DNA from: Escherichia coli
Lineage (GTDB): Bacteria > Pseudomonadota > Gammaproteobacteria > Enterobacterales > Enterobacteriaceae
Direction: 5' to 3' (one strand)
Length of the DNA: 64,000 bases
Assembly (NCBI RefSeq): GCF_003018255.1
Contig: NZ_CP027440.1
Made by a program: the position numbers and the translations under genes. Under the pieces are notes generated by a model. The model was given only the letters and a program-made list of their open reading frames with translations, was not told the origin of the DNA and made no database searches. The first letter of the stretch is position 1; every line of letters begins with the position of its first letter. Positions 13,421 to 48,033 of the stretch are shown one piece after another.

Positions 13421-15322
13421 TTAATGGTCCTCCGCTGCGGCAACCGCTGGATTTTCCGCAGGCAGATCGGTGTTGTTATCACCCAGCATAATGTGGTCGA
13501 GGATCTGGCGCATCAGCGTACCAACCGCTGGACCCGCGCCACCGTTCTCCAGAATCATGGCGACAGCCACTTGCGGATTGTTGTATGGCGCAAAGGCAGT
13601 CATCAGTTTGTGGTCACGTAAACGCTCGGCAATTTTGTGCGCATTATAGGTTTCGTTCGCTTTCAGACCGAAGACCTGAGCTGTACCAGATTTCGCCGCA
13701 ATTTTGTACGGTGCGCTGGCAAAGTATTTATGCGCCGTACCGTTAGGGCGGTTAGCAACACCGTACATACCGTCTTTTGCTAGCTCCCAGTAACCGGAAT
13801 GAATATCGCCGACGGGCGGTTCATGCGGTTGTACCCATGGCACCTGTTTGCCGTCTTCGGCGGTGCTCATCAGCAAATGCGGAACCTTCACGATACCGTC
13901 ATTAATCAGGATCATCAGTGCCTTACTCATCTGGATTGGGGTCGCTGTCCAGTAACCCTGACCGATACCAACCGGAATGGTGTCACCCTGATACCACGGT
14001 TTTTTAAAGCGTTTCTGTTTCCATTCGCGGGTAGGCATGTTGCCGGAACGTTCTTCCGCCAGGTCGATACCGGTGTAATGACCATAACCGAATTTACCCA
14101 TCCATTCGGAGAGGCGATCGATCCCCATATCGTAGGCCACCTGATAGAAGAAGGTATCCGCAGATTCTTCCAGCGATCTTGTGACATTCAGACGCCCGTG
14201 GCCCCATTTTTTCCAGTCACGATAACGTTTTTCCGACCCTGGCAGTTGCCACCAGCCGGGGTCAAACAGCGTCGTATTGCGCGTGATCACCCCGGCACTC
14301 AATGCCGAAACCGCAACATAGGGTTTAACTGTAGACGCGGGAGGATAAACCCCCTGTGTGGCGCGGTTCACCAGCGGTGTATTCGGGTCGTTCAGCAAGG
14401 CGGAATAATCTTTGCTGGAGATACCGTCAACAAACAGGTTTGGGTCATAACTAGGCGTGGAAACCAGCGCCAACACCCCACCTGTACGCGGATCGGTGAC
14501 TACCACAGCTGCGCGGCTACCCGCCAGCAGCGTTTCAATATATTGCTGGAGTTTGAGATCCAGCGTCAGGTAAATATCGTGTCCGGCTTGCGGTGGTACT
14601 TCTTTTAACTGGCGGATAACACGCCCACGGTTGTTAACTTCAACCTCTTCATAACCGGTCTGACCGTGCAGCACGTCTTCATAGTAACGTTCAATGCCCA
14701 GCTTACCGATATCATGCGTTGCCGCATAGTTGGCCAGTTTGCCGTCATTATTCAGGCGTTCGACGTCTTTATCGTTGATTTTCGACACATAGCCGATGAC
14801 GTGGGTCAACGCCGAACCGTAAGGATAGTAACGACGTTTATAGCCTTTAACTTCAACACCCGGAAAACGGTACTGGTTGACGGCAAAGCGAGCTACTTGT
14901 ACTTCGGTCAGGTTAGTTTTCACCGGAATAGAGGTGAAACGGTGTGAACGTGCGCGCTCTTTTCGGAATGCCGCAATATCATCATCGGTCAGATCAACCA
15001 CGCTGCGCAAAGCGTCCAGCGTTTGCTGCACGTTATCGACTTTCTCCGGCATCATTTCTATCTGGTAGATAGTGCGGTTGAGAGCCAGAGGGATACCGTT
15101 ACGGTCGTAGATAATGCCGCGGCTGGGTGCGATAGGCACCAGCTTAATGCGGTTTTCATTAGAGCGGGTCTGGTAGTCGGTAAAGCGAACAATTTGCAGA
15201 TTATACAGGTTGGCGATAAGCACGCCGGTCAGCAGCAAAATCCCCAAAAAGGCGACCAGCGCCCGGCGCACAAACAGCGCGGACTCTGCCGTATAGTCGC
15301 GAAAAGAGTTCTGTAGTTTCAT
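13421..15322 (-). CDS. mrdA: penicillin-binding protein 2 MrdA (633 aa)
   Basis: ORF track; 4-nt ATGA overlap with rodA. Confidence 0.95.
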
Positions 15323-33365: not shown

Positions 33366-33517
33366 ACCGTTCCTCTTATCTGTATGCCGCCGGAAGCTGA
33401 ACATTCACCGGCCTATAAGGAAATTATTCACGCCACAGGAAAAAGGCGCAAGCATTGCGATAAAGATGGGGATAAAGAGAGAAAAAACAAGGCCCACCGG
33501 AACGGCGGGCCTGAGAA

Positions 33518-34942: not shown

Positions 34943-35087
34943 CGACTTGCTCTTGCGAAATAGTAGCCAGGAATGCAGGGCGCATAGTGTAATGCTTTGC
35001 TGCCGTTGTGACCAGTATGAGCGTTATCAGCCCTTGGGGGTAAAAATCCTGTAAACTTAAAGCATATTGCTAACAGGATGATTGACC

Positions 35088-36263
35088 ATGACAAATCAAC
35101 CAACGGAAATTGCCATTGTCGGCGGAGGAATGGTCGGCGGCGCACTGGCGCTGGGACTGGCTCAGCACGGATTTTCGGTAATGGTTATCGAACATGCCCA
35201 ACCTGCACCGTTTGTCGCTGACAGCCAGCCGGACGTGCGGATCTCGGCGATTAGTGCGGCTTCGGTATCATTGCTTAAAGGGTTAGGGGTCTGGGATGCA
35301 GTACAGGCTATGCGTTGCCATCCTTACCGCAGACTGGAAACGTGGGAGTGGGAAACGGCGCATGTGGTGTTTGACGCCGCTGAACTTAAGCTACCGTTGC
35401 TTGGCTACATGGTGGAAAACACTGTCCTGCAACAGGCGTTGTGGCAGGCGCTGGAAGCGCATCCGAAAGTAACGTTACGTGTGCCAACCTCGCTGATTGC
35501 ACTGCATCGCCATAATGATCTTCAGGAGCTGGAACTGAAGGGCGGTGAAACGATCCTCGCGAAGCTGGTGATTGGTGCCGACGGCGCAAATTCGCAGGTG
35601 CGACAGATGGCGGGAATTGGCGTTCATGCCTGGCAGTATGCGCAGTCGTGTATGTTGATTAGCGTACAGTGTGAGAACGATCCCGGCGACAGCACCTGGC
35701 AGCAATTTACCCCGGACGGACCGCGTGCGTTTCTGCCGTTGTTTGATAACTGGGCATCGCTGGTGTGGTATGACTCTCCGGCGCGCATTCGCCAGTTGCA
35801 GAATATGAATATGGCGCAGCTACAGGCGGAAATCGCGAAGCATTTCCCGTCGCGTCTGGGTTACGTGACACCGCTTGCCGCTGGTGCGTTTCCGCTGATA
35901 CGTCGCCATGCGTTGCAGTATGTGCAACCAGGGCTTGCTCTGGTGGGCGATGCCGCGCATACCATCCATCCGCTGGCGGGGCAGGGGGTGAATCTTGGTT
36001 ATCGTGATGTCGATGCCCTGATTGACGTTCTGGTGAACGCCCGCAGCTACGGCGAAGCGTGGGCCAGTTATCCTGTGCTCAAGCGTTACCAGATGCGGCG
36101 TATGGCGGATAACTTTATGATGCAAAGTGGTATGGATCTGTTTTATGCCGGATTCAGCAATAATCTGCCACCGCTGCGTTTTGTGCGTAATCTTGGTTTG
36201 ATGGCGGCGGAGCGTGCTGGCGTGTTGAAACGTAAGGCGCTGAAATATGCGTTAGGGTTGTAG
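35088..36263 (+). CDS. ubiF: ubiquinone biosynthesis hydroxylase UbiF (391 aa)
   Basis: Track ORF starts MTMTNQ; known start MTNQPTEIAIVGGGMVGG (FAD-binding GxGxxG). Confidence 0.9.
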   Translation: MTNQPTEIAIVGGGMVGGALALGLAQHGFSVMVIEHAQPAPFVADSQPDVRISAISAASVSLLKGLGVWDAVQAMRCHPYRRLETWEWETAHVVFDAAELKLPLLGYMVENTVLQQALWQALEAHPKVTLRVPTSLIALHRHNDLQELELKGGETILAKLVIGADGANSQVRQMAGIGVHAWQYAQSCMLISVQCENDPGDSTWQQFTPDGPRAFLPLFDNWASLVWYDSPARIRQLQNMNMAQLQAEIAKHFPSRLGYVTPLAAGAFPLIRRHALQYVQPGLALVGDAAHTIHPLAGQGVNLGYRDVDALIDVLVNARSYGEAWASYPVLKRYQMRRMADNFMMQSGMDLFYAGFSNNLPPLRFVRNLGLMAAERAGVLKRKALKYALGL

Positions 36264-36293
36264 CCTCACAACATTGCTGGATGCATGCCAACC

Positions 36294-36364
36294 GTAGGTC
36301 GGATAAGACGCGGCAGCGTCGCATCCGACTTTGAAGGATAAGACGAGTCAACATCGCATTCGGC
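36294..36364. repeat. REP/BIME-like cluster downstream of ubiF
   Basis: gtaggtcggataagacgcggcagcgtcgcatccgac (36294-36329) resembles the REP consensus; second partial unit 36336-36364. Confidence 0.7.
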
Positions 36365-36385
36365 ATTGAATATACGCAGAAAAGC

Positions 36386-36412
36386 AAAAAGCTCGCCGAG
36401 GCGAGCTTTTTT
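36386..36412. terminator. intrinsic terminator at the tRNA operon 3' end, convergent with ubiF
   Basis: agctcgcc (36390-36397) gag ggcgagct (36401-36408), T6 on plus and U-tract on minus. Confidence 0.8.
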
Positions 36413-36416
36413 AATG

Positions 36417-36491
36417 TGGCTGGGGTACGAGGATTCGAACCTCGGAATGCCGGAATCAGAATCCGGTGCCTTACCGCTTGGCGATACCCCA
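36417..36491 (-). tRNA. glnX: tRNA-Gln (anticodon CUG), 75 nt
   Basis: Full match to the tRNA-Gln cloverleaf with CCA end; anticodon loop UUCUGAU. Confidence 0.95.
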
Positions 36492-36528
36492 ACTGGGTGC
36501 ACTTACAAGGTAAGCGTCTTGAATAAAT

Positions 36529-36603
36529 TGGCTGGGGTACGAGGATTCGAACCTCGGAATGCCGGAATCAGAATCCGGTGCCTTACCGCTTGGCGATACC
36601 CCA
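36529..36603 (-). tRNA. glnV: tRNA-Gln (anticodon CUG), 75 nt
   Basis: Identical copy of the preceding tRNA-Gln(CUG). Confidence 0.95.
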
Positions 36604-36651
36604 ACAAATTGGTTTTTGAATTTGCCGAACATATTCGACACATTCAGAATT

Positions 36652-36728
36652 TGGTGGCTACGACGGGATTCGAACCTGTGACCCCATCATTATGAGTGAT
36701 GTGCTCTAACCAACTGAGCTACGTAGCC
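36652..36728 (-). tRNA. metU: tRNA-Met elongator (anticodon CAU), 77 nt
   Basis: Match to GGCUACGUAGCUCAGUUGGUUAGAGC...CCA, anticodon loop CUCAUAA. Confidence 0.95.
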
Positions 36729-36743
36729 AGATTGTTTCTTCGA

Positions 36744-36818
36744 TGGCTGGGGTACCTGGATTCGAACCAGGGAATGCCGGTATCAAAAACCGGTGCCTTA
36801 CCGCTTGGCGATACCCCA
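36744..36818 (-). tRNA. glnW: tRNA-Gln (anticodon UUG), 75 nt
   Basis: tRNA-Gln body with anticodon loop UUUUGAU. Confidence 0.95.
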
Positions 36819-36852
36819 ATAACCGGGCGGTGAACCGCTTATTCGAAGAATA

Positions 36853-36927
36853 TGGCTGGGGTACCTGGATTCGAACCAGGGAATGCCGGTATCAAAAACC
36901 GGTGCCTTACCGCTTGGCGATACCCCA
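36853..36927 (-). tRNA. glnU: tRNA-Gln (anticodon UUG), 75 nt
   Basis: Identical copy of the preceding tRNA-Gln(UUG). Confidence 0.95.
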
Positions 36928-36950
36928 TCCGTACAACGCTTTCTGGTGAA

Positions 36951-37035
36951 TGGTGCGGGAGGCGAGACTTGAACTCGCACACCTTGCGGCGCCAGAACCT
37001 AAATCTGGTGCGTCTACCAATTTCGCCACTCCCGC
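36951..37035 (-). tRNA. leuW: tRNA-Leu (anticodon UAG), 85 nt
   Basis: Long-variable-arm class II tRNA, anticodon loop AUUUAGG, CCA end. Confidence 0.95.
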
Positions 37036-37043
37036 AAAAAAGA

Positions 37044-37120
37044 TGGTGGCTACGACGGGATTCGAACCTGTGACCCCATCATTATGAGTGATGTGCTCTA
37101 ACCAACTGAGCTACGTAGCC
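37044..37120 (-). tRNA. metT: tRNA-Met elongator (anticodon CAU), 77 nt
   Basis: Identical to metU; first tRNA of the operon. Confidence 0.95.
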
Positions 37121-39165: not shown

Positions 39166-39383
39166 AACCTTCTCCGTTAACCTGGTGTTTACTGCGTGTT
39201 GTGTTTACTTGTTAAAAAAATGCCGCAAAGCAGCACGGTGCGCAAGCGATTTGGCAGTGGAAAAATAAAAAACGTAATGGCGATTGCTGATTGATGAAAA
39301 AGGGGAGGGCTTTTGGGTATATTTATTGATGGATCGATAATTTTTGACGGGTTTTATTGAATGGGGTGATTTTAATGATGGGT

Positions 39384-39415
39384 AAAAATAAGAAACCACG
39401 CCCTGAGGCGTGGTT
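39384..39415 (-). terminator. intrinsic terminator downstream of nagD
   Basis: aaccacgc (39394-39401) / gcgtggtt (39408-39415), U-rich tract on the minus strand (plus 39384-39393). Confidence 0.7.
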
Positions 39416-43790: not shown

Positions 43791-45737
43791 ATGAATATTT
43801 TAGGTTTTTTCCAGCGACTAGGTAGGGCGTTACAGCTCCCTATCGCGGTGCTGCCGGTGGCGGCGCTGTTGCTGCGATTCGGTCAGCCAGATTTACTTAA
43901 CGTTGCGTTTATTGCCCAGGCGGGCGGTGCGATTTTTGATAACCTCGCATTAATCTTCGCCATCGGCGTGGCATCCAGCTGGTCGAAAGACAGCGCAGGT
44001 GCGGCGGCACTGGCGGGTGCGGTAGGTTACTTTGTGTTAACCAAAGCGATGGTGACCATCAACCCAGAAATTAACATGGGTGTACTGGCGGGTATCATTA
44101 CCGGTCTGGTCGGTGGTGCAGCCTATAACCGTTGGTCCGATATTAAACTGCCGGACTTCCTGAGCTTCTTCGGCGGCAAACGCTTTGTGCCGATTGCCAC
44201 CGGCTTCTTCTGCCTGGTGCTGGCGGCCATTTTTGGTTACGTCTGGCCGCCGGTACAGCACGCTATCCATGCAGGCGGCGAGTGGATCGTTTCTGCGGGC
44301 GCGCTGGGTTCCGGTATCTTTGGTTTCATCAACCGTCTGCTGATCCCAACCGGTCTGCATCAGGTACTGAACACCATCGCCTGGTTCCAGATTGGTGAAT
44401 TCACCAACGCGGCGGGTACGGTTTTCCACGGCGACATTAACCGCTTCTATGCCGGTGACGGCACCGCGGGGATGTTCATGTCCGGCTTCTTCCCGATCAT
44501 GATGTTCGGTCTGCCGGGTGCGGCGCTGGCGATGTACTTTGCAGCACCGAAAGAGCGTCGTCCGATGGTTGGCGGTATGCTGCTTTCTGTTGCTGTTACT
44601 GCGTTCCTGACCGGTGTGACTGAGCCGCTGGAATTCCTGTTCATGTTCCTTGCGCCGCTGCTGTACCTCCTGCACGCACTGCTGACCGGTATCAGCCTGT
44701 TTGTGGCAACGCTGCTGGGTATCCACGCGGGCTTCTCCTTCTCTGCGGGGGCTATCGACTACGCGTTGATGTATAACCTGCCGGCCGCCAGCCAGAACGT
44801 CTGGATGCTGCTGGTGATGGGTGTTGTCTTCTTCGCTATCTACTTCGTGGTGTTCAGTTTGGTTATCCGCATGTTCAACCTGAAAACGCCGGGCCGTGAA
44901 GATAAAGAAGACGAGATCGTTACTGAAGAAGCCAACAGCAACACGGAAGAAGGTCTCAATCAACTGGCAACCAACTATATTGCTGCGGTTGGCGGTACTG
45001 ACAACCTGAAAGCCATTGACGCCTGTATTACTCGTCTGCGCCTTACCGTGGTTGACTCAGCTCGCGTCAACGATGTGATGTGTAAACGTCTGGGGGCTTC
45101 TGGGGTAGTAAAACTGAACAAACAGACTATTCAGGTGATTGTGGGCGCGAAAGCAGAATCCATCGGCGATGCGATGAAGAAAGTCGTTGCCCGTGGTCCG
45201 GTAGCCGCTGCGTCAGCTGAAACTGCGCCTGCAACTGCCGCGCCTGTAGCAAAACCGCAGGCTGTACCAAACGCGGTGTCTATCGCGGAGCTGGTATCGC
45301 CGATTACCGGTGATGTTGTGGCACTGGATCAGGTTCCTGACGAAGCATTCGCCAGCAAAGCGGTGGGTGACGGTGTGGCGGTGAAACCGACAGATAAAAT
45401 CGTCGTATCACCAGCCGCAGGGACAATCGTGAAAATCTTCAACACCAACCACGCGTTCTGTCTGGAAACCGAAAAAGGCGCGGAGATCGTCGTCCATATG
45501 GGTATCGACACCGTAGCGCTGGAAGGTAAAGGCTTTAAACGTCTGGTGGAAGAGGGCGCGCAGGTAAGCGCAGGACAACCGATTCTGGAAATGGATCTGG
45601 ATTACCTGAACGCTAACGCCCGCTCGATGATTAGCCCGGTGGTTTGCAGCAATATCGACGATTTCAGCGGCCTGATCATTAAAGCTCAGGGCCATGTTGT
45701 GGCGGGTCAAACACCGCTGTATGAAATCAAAAAGTAA
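43791..45737 (+). CDS. nagE: PTS N-acetylglucosamine transporter EIICBA NagE (648 aa)
   Basis: ORF track; recognised sequence. Confidence 0.95.
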   Translation: MNILGFFQRLGRALQLPIAVLPVAALLLRFGQPDLLNVAFIAQAGGAIFDNLALIFAIGVASSWSKDSAGAAALAGAVGYFVLTKAMVTINPEINMGVLAGIITGLVGGAAYNRWSDIKLPDFLSFFGGKRFVPIATGFFCLVLAAIFGYVWPPVQHAIHAGGEWIVSAGALGSGIFGFINRLLIPTGLHQVLNTIAWFQIGEFTNAAGTVFHGDINRFYAGDGTAGMFMSGFFPIMMFGLPGAALAMYFAAPKERRPMVGGMLLSVAVTAFLTGVTEPLEFLFMFLAPLLYLLHALLTGISLFVATLLGIHAGFSFSAGAIDYALMYNLPAASQNVWMLLVMGVVFFAIYFVVFSLVIRMFNLKTPGREDKEDEIVTEEANSNTEEGLNQLATNYIAAVGGTDNLKAIDACITRLRLTVVDSARVNDVMCKRLGASGVVKLNKQTIQVIVGAKAESIGDAMKKVVARGPVAAASAETAPATAAPVAKPQAVPNAVSIAELVSPITGDVVALDQVPDEAFASKAVGDGVAVKPTDKIVVSPAAGTIVKIFNTNHAFCLETEKGAEIVVHMGIDTVALEGKGFKRLVEEGAQVSAGQPILEMDLDYLNANARSMISPVVCSNIDDFSGLIIKAQGHVVAGQTPLYEIKK

Positions 45738-45747
45738 TCTGCTTTAT

Positions 45748-45776
45748 GCCTGATGCGACGCTTGAGCGTCGCATCC
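45748..45776. repeat. REP-like palindromic unit downstream of nagE
   Basis: gatgcgacgc (45752-45761) ttga gcgtcgcatc (45766-45775). Confidence 0.6.
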
Positions 45777-45785
45777 AACAATGAC

Positions 45786-45819
45786 AAGCGGTGGAGATCT
45801 TCTCTGCCGCTTTTTTTTT
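45786..45819 (+). terminator. terminator downstream of nagE
   Basis: aagcgg (45786-45791) / ccgctt (45807-45812) then a T9 run to 45819. Confidence 0.6.
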
Positions 45820-45939
45820 CATCAATCATCCCCATAATCTCAGTGAGATTTTCGATTTTCACTAACTAACAGTTGTCAGCCTGTCCCGCTTATAAGATCA
45901 TACGCCGTTATACGTTGTTTACGCTTTGAGGAATCCACG

Positions 45940-47604
45940 ATGAGTGAGGCAGAAGCCCGCCCGACTAACTTTATTCGTCAGATCATCGATGAAGATCTGG
46001 CCAGTGGTAAGCACACCACAGTACACACCCGTTTCCCGCCGGAGCCGAATGGCTATCTGCATATTGGCCATGCGAAATCTATCTGCCTGAACTTCGGGAT
46101 CGCCCAGGACTATAAAGGCCAGTGCAACCTGCGTTTCGACGACACTAACCCGGTAAAAGAAGATATCGAGTATGTTGAGTCGATCAAAAACGACGTTGAG
46201 TGGTTAGGTTTTCACTGGTCTGGTAACGTCCGTTACTCCTCCGATTATTTTGATCAGCTCCACGCCTATGCGATCGAACTGATCAATAAAGGCCTGGCGT
46301 ACGTTGATGAACTGACACCGGAACAGATCCGCGAATACCGCGGCACCCTGACGCAGCCGGGTAAAAACAGCCCGTACCGCGACCGCAGCGTTGAAGAGAA
46401 CCTGGCGCTGTTCGAAAAAATGCGTACCGGTAGTTTTGAAGAAGGTAAAGCCTGCCTGCGTGCGAAAATCGACATGGCGTCGCCATTTATCGTAATGCGC
46501 GATCCGGTGCTGTACCGCATTAAATTTGCTGAACACCACCAGACTGGCAACAAGTGGTGCATCTACCCGATGTACGACTTCACCCACTGCATCAGCGATG
46601 CGCTGGAAGGTATTACGCACTCTCTGTGTACGCTTGAGTTCCAGGACAACCGCCGTCTGTACGACTGGGTACTGGACAACATCACCATTCCTGTTCACCC
46701 GCGCCAGTACGAATTCTCGCGCCTGAATCTGGAATACACTGTGATGTCCAAGCGTAAGCTGAACCTGCTGGTGACCGATAAGCACGTTGAAGGCTGGGAT
46801 GACCCGCGTATGCCGACCATTTCTGGTCTGCGTCGTCGTGGTTACACTGCGGCTTCTATTCGTGAGTTCTGCAAACGCATTGGTGTGACCAAGCAGGACA
46901 ACACCATTGAGATGGCGTCACTGGAATCCTGCATCCGTGAAGATCTCAACGAAAATGCCCCGCGCGCAATGGCGGTTATCGATCCGGTGAAACTGGTTAT
47001 CGAAAACTACCAGGGCGAAGGCGAAATGGTCACCATGCCGAACCATCCGAACAAACCGGAAATGGGTAGCCGTCAGGTGCCGTTTAGCTGTGAGATTTGG
47101 ATCGATCGCGCCGATTTCCGCGAAGAAGCTAACAAGCAGTACAAACGTCTGGTGTTGGGTAAAGAAGTGCGTCTGCGTAATGCTTACGTGATTAAGGCAG
47201 AACGCGTCGAGAAAGATGCCGAAGGTAATATCACCACCATCTTCTGTACTTATGACGCCGACACCTTAAGCAAAGATCCGGCAGATGGTCGTAAAGTGAA
47301 AGGTGTTATTCACTGGGTGAGCGCGGCACATGCGCTGCCGGTTGAAATCCGTTTGTATGACCGTCTGTTCAGCGTGCCTAACCCAGGTGCTGCGGATGAT
47401 TTCCTGTCGGTGATTAACCCGGAATCGCTGGTGATCAAACAGGGTTTCGCTGAACCGTCGCTGAAAGACGCGGTAGCGGGTAAAGCATTCCAGTTTGAGC
47501 GTGAAGGTTATTTCTGCCTCGACAGCCGCCATTCCACTGCCGAAAAACCGGTATTTAACCGCACCGTAGGGCTGCGTGATACCTGGGCGAAAGTAGGCGA
47601 GTAG
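45940..47604 (+). CDS. glnS: glutaminyl-tRNA synthetase GlnS (554 aa)
   Basis: ORF track; HIGH motif (PNGYLHIGH) and VMSKR. Confidence 0.96.
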
Positions 47605-47619
47605 TTTTAAGTTCTACCA

Positions 47620-47650
47620 GGCCGGGTGAGGCATTTACGCCACATCCGGC
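47620..47650. repeat. REP element downstream of glnS
   Basis: Minus-strand gccggatgtggcgtaaatgcctcacccggcc closely matches the REP consensus. Confidence 0.7.
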
Positions 47651-47671
47651 AAGAAATATGCAAACAATCCC

Positions 47672-47699
47672 AAACGCCGCGCTCTGCGGCGTTTTTTTT
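47672..47699 (+). terminator. intrinsic terminator of glnS
   Basis: acgccgc (47674-47680) gctct gcggcgt (47686-47692) then T8. Confidence 0.8.
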
Positions 47700-48033
47700 C
47701 TGCTTTTCTTCGCGAATTAATTCCGCTTCGCAATTTATCCATAAAACAAATTTAAAATCACAAACCATAATTAAATAAAATGTAACCGTTTTCATCTTAC
47801 TGGAAATTCACGCTTTTATTCTTCTGCAAGCCTTTCAACTGCAAACTTAAGCCTTGTAACAAAAATCATCAAAATATGTGCGGTTGCTCATGTTCTTACA
47901 TTCTGGTTACAGAAAGAGATTGATAATTCGCGTCGCGAAAAATAGTCTGTTCCTGTAGTCAGCGAGACTTTTCTCAACGCTACTTTTTTAATTTTTATTT
48001 TTTTCGCTGTTCACCTTTGGTGCAGCAATTTAT

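Follow-up and report, generated by a model that had tools for sequence, protein, structure and literature searches.

REPs are short, non-autonomous, high-copy extragenic repeats, present in hundreds of copies and linked to the RAYT/TnpA-REP transposase. They also serve as the building units of BIMEs, among which BIME-1 (RIP/RIB) binds IHF via its L linker, and BIME-2, built on the Y-S-Z2 unit, binds gyrase. The REP between malE and malF is a classical mRNA stabiliser. REPs have been known since 1984 (Stern 1984), and the types Y, Z1 and Z2 are distinguished among them (Gilson and Bachellier).

In E. coli, a REP is a 30-40-nt imperfect palindrome with a conserved GTAG located 5' of the hairpin foot, or with CTAC 3' of the foot when the element is inverted, and both the GTAG and the stem mismatch (AA opposite GC) are needed for binding and cleavage by TnpA-REP (Ton-Hoang 2012, PMC3333891). 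In a BIME, two REPs of inverse orientation are paired across a defined linker, and Z1, a 30-nt form, is the partner of Y across a long linker (PMC3333891). For the K-12 REPs flanking the RAYT gene, GTAGGacgGATAAGgCGttCACGcCGCATCcGGCA was given as Y and GTAGGcatGATAAGaCGcgcCAgCGtCGCATCaGGCA as Z2 (Nunvar 2010 Table 1, PMC2817692), Z2 being a 37-nt form, GTAGGCCTGATAAGACGCGCCAGCGTCGCATCAGGCA (PMC2817692). A consensus drawn from 224 of 356 annotated elements reads GCCGGATGCGGCGTGAACGCCTTATCCGGCCTACGA (PMC12306157). In a REPIN, two inverted REPs form one long hairpin, which was proposed to be the mobile unit (Bertels and Rainey 2011, PMC3116915). One annotated element of MG1655, REP62, is located at 705898-705933, between nagE and glnS (supplement, bioRxiv 10.64898/2026.03.23.713779).

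We looked at three REP-like hairpins in a 64,000-nucleotide stretch of DNA, referred to below as the window. It is a segment of the E. coli chromosome that runs miaB-ubiF-tRNA operon-asnB-nag-glnS-chiP, and its gene order is syntenic with K-12 MG1655 at 694.5-710.5 kb. The part from 35.9 to 36.7 kb has a match in 5,424 of 5,426 complete E. coli genomes and is 100% identical to strain Combat2C1. The genes that matter here are the following:

miaB, minus strand
35082-36263, plus strand, ubiF
36417-37120, minus strand, seven tRNA genes (the metT-leuW-glnUW-metU-glnVX operon)
asnB, umpH and nagC/A/B, minus strand, in the order listed
43791-45737, plus strand, nagE
45940-47604, plus strand, glnS
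chiP, plus strand, after glnS

The junction of ubiF with the tRNA operon is convergent and those of nagE with glnS and of glnS with chiP are tandem, as the first-pass annotation had described them. In the tRNA operon itself, at least one genome (NZ_CP018957.1) aligned over a span shorter by about 113 nt at the glnX and glnV tRNA-Gln genes, which points to recombination between these duplicated genes and hence to a variable copy number.

REP-like hairpins had been proposed after ubiF, nagE and glnS, each with an intrinsic terminator just downstream, and hairpins and terminators were all found in these places. When positions were compared with those of ORFs, tRNAs and terminators, all three sites proved to be extragenic and 3' of genes. 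Their elements are:

36274-36290, plus strand, candidate remnant, possibly the 5' half of an inverted Y REP (direct reading, K-12 alignment)
36294-36329, plus strand, canonical REP with a Z2-like core and a Y-like foot (covariance, fold, copy number)
36336-36370, plus strand, degenerate tandem copy in direct orientation
36386-36411, both strands, bidirectional intrinsic terminator of ubiF (plus) and the tRNA operon (minus), with perfect 12-nt arms AAAAAGCTCGCC and GGCGAGCTTTTT (terminator scan, fold)
45747-45779, plus strand, chimeric REP remnant after nagE, equal to K-12 REP62
45786-45821, plus strand, nagE intrinsic terminator, with a 12-bp stem at 45786-45812 followed by T9 (terminator scan, fold)
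47619-47651, plus strand, Y-type REP without the GTAG head, after glnS (covariance, consensus scan, fold, K-12/O157 alignment)
47672-47702, plus strand, glnS intrinsic terminator, with a GC-rich stem of 9-10 bp at 47672-47694 followed by T8 (terminator scan, fold)

Counted from the last base of the stop codon, the stem begins after about 34 nt at ubiF (30 nt to the GTAG), 14 nt at nagE and 16 nt at glnS. The distance from hairpin to terminator stem is 56 nt at ubiF (15 nt when measured from where the degenerate copy ends), 10 nt at nagE and 21 nt at glnS. An A-run and a T-run flank the stem at 36386-36411, indicating that this terminator serves both ubiF and the tRNA operon. None of the three REP hairpins has a U-tract of its own, since the sequences that come next are CTTTGAAGG, CAACAATGAC and AAGAAATATG, and none was called by the terminator scan; the true terminators are the separate hairpins 10-56 nt downstream.

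To assess membership of the REP family, the whole 64 kb was compared by Smith-Waterman alignment with three literature consensus sequences. Four places only stood out, namely ubiF unit 1 (score 49), ubiF unit 2 (28), the nagE hairpin (38) and the glnS unit (41), against a maximum of 32 in a control made of five mononucleotide shuffles. We also built a covariance model from 20 REP units of three K-12 stretches, from which the orthologues of the three sites were excluded. The foot and inner stem were modelled as pairs and the model was run on the whole window with filters off; its E-values are rough, given 20 sequences and a shortened calibration. Covariance matches and folds were as follows:

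36292-36332, ubiF unit 1: 37.8 bits, E 1.1e-8; fold of 36294-36329, -22.6 kcal/mol, z -5.05
36336-36361, ubiF unit 2, partial and marginal: 13.7 bits, E 0.099; fold of 36333-36368, z +0.39, no better than shuffles
45745-45781, nagE, not significant: 7.3 bits, E 6.7; fold of 45752-45775, -18.0 kcal/mol, z -5.4
47615-47653, glnS: 22.6 bits, E 2.6e-4; fold of 47621-47650, -20.7 kcal/mol, z -5.5

A stable stem-loop, as expected of a 30-40-nt palindrome, can thus be formed by three of the four claimed units, the second ubiF unit being the exception. A scan with REP models, which the first-pass annotation had put forward as a check, recovers ubiF unit 1 and glnS and misses the nagE hairpin, though the latter is demonstrably REP-derived. 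One further match to the REP model was obtained at 33386-33418 on the minus strand, downstream of miaB (13.1 bits, E 0.14; TATAGGCCGG...CCGGC). It is probably not a REP, its fold having a z of -0.22. An Rfam scan of 35-49 kb returned the seven tRNAs only and no family matching the REP sites.

Taken alone, the lack of GTAG in two of the three hairpins, the 7.3 bits of nagE with the REP model and the Rfam result could be read as signs of gene-specific 3'UTR hairpins or of chance palindromes unrelated to the REP family. Copy number speaks against this. When each unit was searched by BLAST against 5,426 E. coli genomes (a 28-Gb database, E-value limit 10), the ubiF unit was found at at least 40 places per genome (5,424 records), the nagE hairpin at a median of 35 and the glnS unit at a median of 12, so that over the whole database and at this limit each has from 12 to at least 40 places per genome. 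Moreover, the nagE element begins with 16 nt that match the inverted Z2 consensus exactly, REP62 is annotated in K-12, and other strains have intact alleles of the ancestral type. An origin outside the family is refuted by copy number and by the comparison of alleles, and we give it next to no credence. Altogether, model scores, copy number, the REP62 annotation and the orthology of the glnS unit to a canonical Y REP bear out the proposed membership of, or derivation from, the REP family, and the three hairpins are very probably E. coli REP (palindromic unit) copies at different stages of decay, lying in 3'UTRs. Like other E. coli REPs, they are GC-rich palindromes, extragenic and 3' of genes, and ubiF unit 1 has the full anatomy of a 30-40-nt imperfect palindrome. 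They differ from the family in that nagE and glnS are without GTAG, nagE is perfect and made of two half-units, and ubiF unit 2 does not fold.

The intact unit is the one after ubiF. The sequence at 36294-36329, GTAGGTCGGATAAGACGCGGCAGCGTCGCATCCGAC, carries a GTAG head, a foot of 7 bp, a 2x2 mismatch and an inner stem of 5 bp (9+5 bp in the folded hairpin), and it is the only copy in the window with all features of the REP definition. The GTAG head is present at 36294-36297 only and absent from the nagE and glnS elements, and the AA/GC bubble is found in ubiF unit 1, whereas nagE has no stem mismatch and glnS a single A.A. By the published criteria (PMC3333891), binding by RAYT (TnpA-REP, YafM) would be expected for 36294-36329 only. 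Because the nagE and glnS copies are without GTAG and mismatch, we infer from what is described for the family that they would have lost recognition by RAYT.

Two palindromic units had been reported after ubiF. The repeat is real, as 36336-36370 is 80% identical to 36301-36335 at a spacing of 35 nt, but the second unit has neither GTAG head nor left foot, its inner stem is no longer complementary, and it is not a palindrome (z +0.39). Upstream of the intact unit, the sequence at 36274-36290, TTGCTGGATGCATGCC, corresponds to TTGCCGGATGCGTGCC in K-12, which has an exact 11-mer, TGCCGGATGCG. It was detected neither by the consensus scan nor by the covariance model, and a remnant of an inverted Y half-REP is a weak possibility here. 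In the minimum-energy fold of the whole ubiF 3'UTR, 36274-36290 pairs with 36352-36364. Between the window and K-12, this stem differs by U.G versus C.A and by A-U versus G.U, with no compensatory change, and these differences give no support for selection on the stem. The ubiF spacer has equal length in 39 of 40 evenly sampled E. coli genomes and is at least 80% covered in 5,344 genomes. These comparisons indicate that the ubiF REP cluster is old and fixed.

The hairpin after nagE has another anatomy. Its 5' half, TGCCTGATGCGACGCTTG, belongs to an inverted Z2 REP and is joined to AGCGTCGCATCCAAC, the 3' half of an adjacent REP. The first 16 nt, TGCCTGATGCGACGCT, match the inverted Z2 consensus exactly, and the right half, AGCGTCGCATCC, is that of a forward REP. 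Over all 11 nt, the arms (45752-45762 and 45765-45775) are complementary, making a hairpin of 10-11 bp, and the element ends in ...CATCCAACAATG, with no CTAC. The palindrome is perfect, with neither mismatch nor CTAC, because its right half comes from a forward REP. REP62 of K-12 (705898-705933) corresponds to window 45745-45780, where the K-12 and window sequences are identical, and its annotated start lies 7 nt after the nagE stop codon.

We then compared the nagE-glnS spacer among strains. For this, rows were taken at even steps down the BLAST ranking, and in a sample of 40, 24 were like the window and K-12, 7 were 65 nt longer and 8 carried IS200C, these figures, like the other strain class frequencies given here, being rough database fractions that include redundant records and not population frequencies. 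The long allele, as seen in strain 203740, consists of TGCCTGATGCGACGCTTGACGCGTCTTATCAGGCCTAC, a 15-nt linker and GTTGGATAAGACGCTTAAGCGTCGCATCCAAC. In it, an inverted Z2 REP complete with its CTAC precedes a second REP of opposite orientation. Compared with strain 203740, the window is without 52 nt, the ends of this deletion falling in a repeat, GACGCTT(G/A)A, and it also differs by a 13-nt indel. As a whole, the long allele folds into a single hairpin of -55.4 kcal/mol by pairing of its two REPs with each other, and the window hairpin is the base of this structure. The long allele thus resembles a REPIN, being a single hairpin of two opposed REPs, whereas the window nagE element is without the apical 52 nt and its doublet structure is gone. 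The best reading of REP62 is a stump that remained when a REPIN/BIME-2-like long palindrome lost its apex. That the 52-nt event was a deletion, not an insertion, is argued from this anatomy rather than from a rooted phylogeny.

Two further observations concern this spacer. The 13-nt indel, GCAGGACTGGCAA (against window 45785/45786), is the complement of a part of the linker (CAGTCC / GGACTG) and thereby lengthens the stem around the forward REP in the long allele. IS200C, which carries a tnpA of the IS200/IS605 family, lies between the nagE terminator, whose T-run it directly follows, and the glnS promoter in 8 of 40 (about 20%) of the sampled records; in strain 98192, for example, the insertion is equivalent to window position 45820 or thereabouts.

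The position of the nagE hairpin raises a second reading. According to the summary of Liang et al. 2015 given in PMC12306157, REPs less than 16 nt from a stop codon reduce translation because the ribosome stalls at termination. Of the three sites, nagE is the only one to which this could apply. Its stem starts 14 nt and the annotated REP62 7 nt after the stop codon, and among the alleles sampled the short one is the most frequent (24 of 40), so the hairpin might have been kept as a translation attenuator, with a stem less than 15 nt from the stop, ribosome stalling and tmRNA tagging (the Liang-Rudd-Deutscher mechanism). Yet a spacing of 14 nt is at the limit of the reported range, and in the long allele the 5' arm stands equally far from the stop codon, which means that the spacing is not specific to the deletion. 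We regard an attenuator as quite unlikely. It can also be imagined that nagE carries an exapted relic, in which the apex deletion left a perfect, GTAG-less stem unseen by RAYT and kept in most E. coli by tuning NagE synthesis, via stalling of ribosomes at termination, and/or by shielding the nagE mRNA; this is speculative, and we hold it to be improbable. If it were true, nagE would carry a mobile-element fragment frozen into a gene-specific post-transcriptional regulator.

Concerning glnS, the unit starts with CTACCAGGCCGG, with CCAGG in place of GTAGG, and has a Y-type core, GGC.TTTACGCC.CATCCGGCA. An A-to-G change closes half of the bubble, leaving the single A.A. A CCAGG/CCTGG sequence (the CCWGG Dcm site) stands at the place of GTAGG in the window glnS unit (47617-47621), in the forward REP of the long nagE allele and in one K-12 unit; this could be a coincidence or a recurrent head variant.

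The glnS-chiP spacer also exists in two lengths. Among 60 sampled records, about 33 were short like the window and about 25 (about 40%) were about 128 nt longer, like K-12 and O157. In the long form, a first headless unit is followed by an inverted Z1 REP, a 35-nt linker with CAATATATTG, a perfect Y REP and the same terminator. The window unit aligns with the terminator-proximal canonical Y REP of K-12/O157, and its 3' flank matches the same copy, while its 5' half has TG and TTTACG in common with the first unit of the long form. This pattern fits an origin of the short form by unequal recombination between two direct copies, with insertion as a possible alternative, the direction being argued from anatomy here too. 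The spacer is unusually divergent over 47450-47850, with 4 records at least 99% identical to the window and most at 90-95%, and the short-form REP itself occurs as several haplotypes, for example CTACCAGGCCGGGTGAGGC and GTTGTCGGATAGAGCG.

The asnB-umpH spacer varies too. REP61 of K-12 (699426-699523; Y, a 35-nt linker and Z1, of BIME-1 type) is missing from the window, which has about 20 unrelated nt at 39374-39393 where K-12 has about 160 nt. In an even sample of 60, it was absent from 34 and present in 23.

Comparison across strains had been named as a check, and it showed a constant length at ubiF (39 of 40) and polymorphic spacers after nagE and glnS. Strain-to-strain indels with ends in REPs occur at two of the three sites (nagE and glnS) and in the asnB-umpH spacer, which upholds the statement that these elements are recombination breakpoints. 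At the DNA level, the REPs are hot spots for slippage and recombination indels.

The elements had also been called BIMEs and said to bind gyrase and IHF. There is no opposed REP pair at any of the three sites, the ubiF units being direct repeats with a degenerate second member, and nagE and glnS having one hairpin each, and the name BIME does not suit them. A search of the window for the core of the BIME-1 L linker gave no L linker/IHF site at or near the three sites; its single L-linker-like match, at 14534, is no more than chance would give (1.36 matches expected). Direct reading of the three sites showed no Y-S-Z2 unit, the BIME-2 gyrase target, either. Opposed pairs of BIME type are found in the nagE and glnS spacer alleles of other strains only. 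It could be proposed that the three elements are functional BIMEs acting on DNA via IHF (BIME-1/RIP) or DNA gyrase (BIME-2), as the K-12-type glnS and asnB-umpH spacers carry Y, a linker of about 35 nt and Z1, with a CAATATATTG core typical of the L linker, and the long nagE allele is a short-linker pair of opposed REPs. However, the window has none of these arrangements, with no opposed REPs at any site, and its sole L-linker-like match lies elsewhere and at chance level, making such a function very improbable. The window shares the REP building units with BIME-1 and BIME-2, and its nagE and glnS alleles in other strains are such pairs, but in place of an opposed pair, an L linker or a Y-S-Z2 unit it has single REPs or remnants. 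Binding of IHF and gyrase is a property of the BIME-1 and BIME-2 architectures, which are missing at these sites, and is not supported for these copies.

At the RNA level, all three elements would be transcribed within the 3'UTR, between the stop codon and the gene's own terminator, as is usual for the family. ubiF is followed by one intact REP with a degenerate tandem copy and possibly a half-REP upstream; nagE, most probably, by the basal stump of a two-REP (REPIN/BIME-2-like) hairpin with its apical 52 nt deleted; and glnS by one Y REP without a head, whose allelic counterpart has three REPs, a BIME-1 among them. By analogy with the family, RNA stem-loops of -18 to -23 kcal/mol would most likely be a further obstacle to 3'->5' exonucleases that have got past the terminator hairpin, and may also be pause or attenuation sites. 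The stabilisation of upstream mRNA that the first-pass annotation had ascribed to them is plausible and at best redundant with the terminator hairpins downstream, and as a canonical terminator lies right behind each REP, the effect is expected to be small or nil. In a 2026 preprint, REPs were given a dual, context-dependent role, and terminal REPs had no genome-wide effect on half-life (bioRxiv 10.64898/2026.03.23.713779).

The same preprint describes REP325 in yjdM-yjdN, likewise a 3'UTR/intercistronic stem-loop able to block 3' exonucleases or attenuate readthrough (bioRxiv 10.64898/2026.03.23.713779). The hairpins studied here might have a similar transcriptional role, by pausing or attenuation, partly Rho-dependent, that backs up or tunes the downstream terminators, and REP62 is indeed 43 nt from a region, 705976-706139, listed in a NusG-related table (supplement, bioRxiv 10.64898/2026.03.23.713779). 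Against this, each site has a strong canonical terminator directly downstream, the hairpins themselves are not followed by a U-tract, REP325 comprises 12 units and not one, and about 40% of strains have other REP content at two of the sites with no known phenotype. We consider such a role unlikely. REP325 and malE-malF are both multi-unit arrays without an adjacent strong intrinsic terminator, whereas here a single unit stands just upstream of a canonical one, and its effect is probably smaller or redundant by comparison. The reading that we retain is that of REP copies which grade from canonical (ubiF unit 1) over headless (glnS) to a chimeric remnant (nagE, REP62) and a relic that does not fold (ubiF unit 2).

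REP repeat_region features were absent from the stretches inspected in the current RefSeq records of MG1655 (NC_000913.3) and W3110 (NC_007779.1), and in the thrC-yaaA region (5565-5670) the consensus scan found a clear Z2/Y pair, yet RefSeq has no REP feature there. The RepRanger supplement holds no entries for the genes studied here. From numbering alone (REP59 at 689 kb, REP61 at 699.4 kb, REP62 at 705.9 kb and REP65 at 715.3 kb), our guess is that the ubiF and glnS elements are REP60 and REP63.

The REP hairpins of this locus are ordinary, already known biology, REP/BIME polymorphism having been known for decades, and beyond correct annotation their importance is small. With no REP features in RefSeq, such hairpins can be mistaken for gene-specific regulators or parts of sRNAs, and decayed copies such as REP62 escape a strict REP model. 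What is said about IHF and gyrase applies to particular BIME architectures and not to any REP. The locus offers a small, clean illustration of how REP pairs may decay by apical deletion and unequal recombination, and of the extent to which 3'UTR content differs among E. coli strains.
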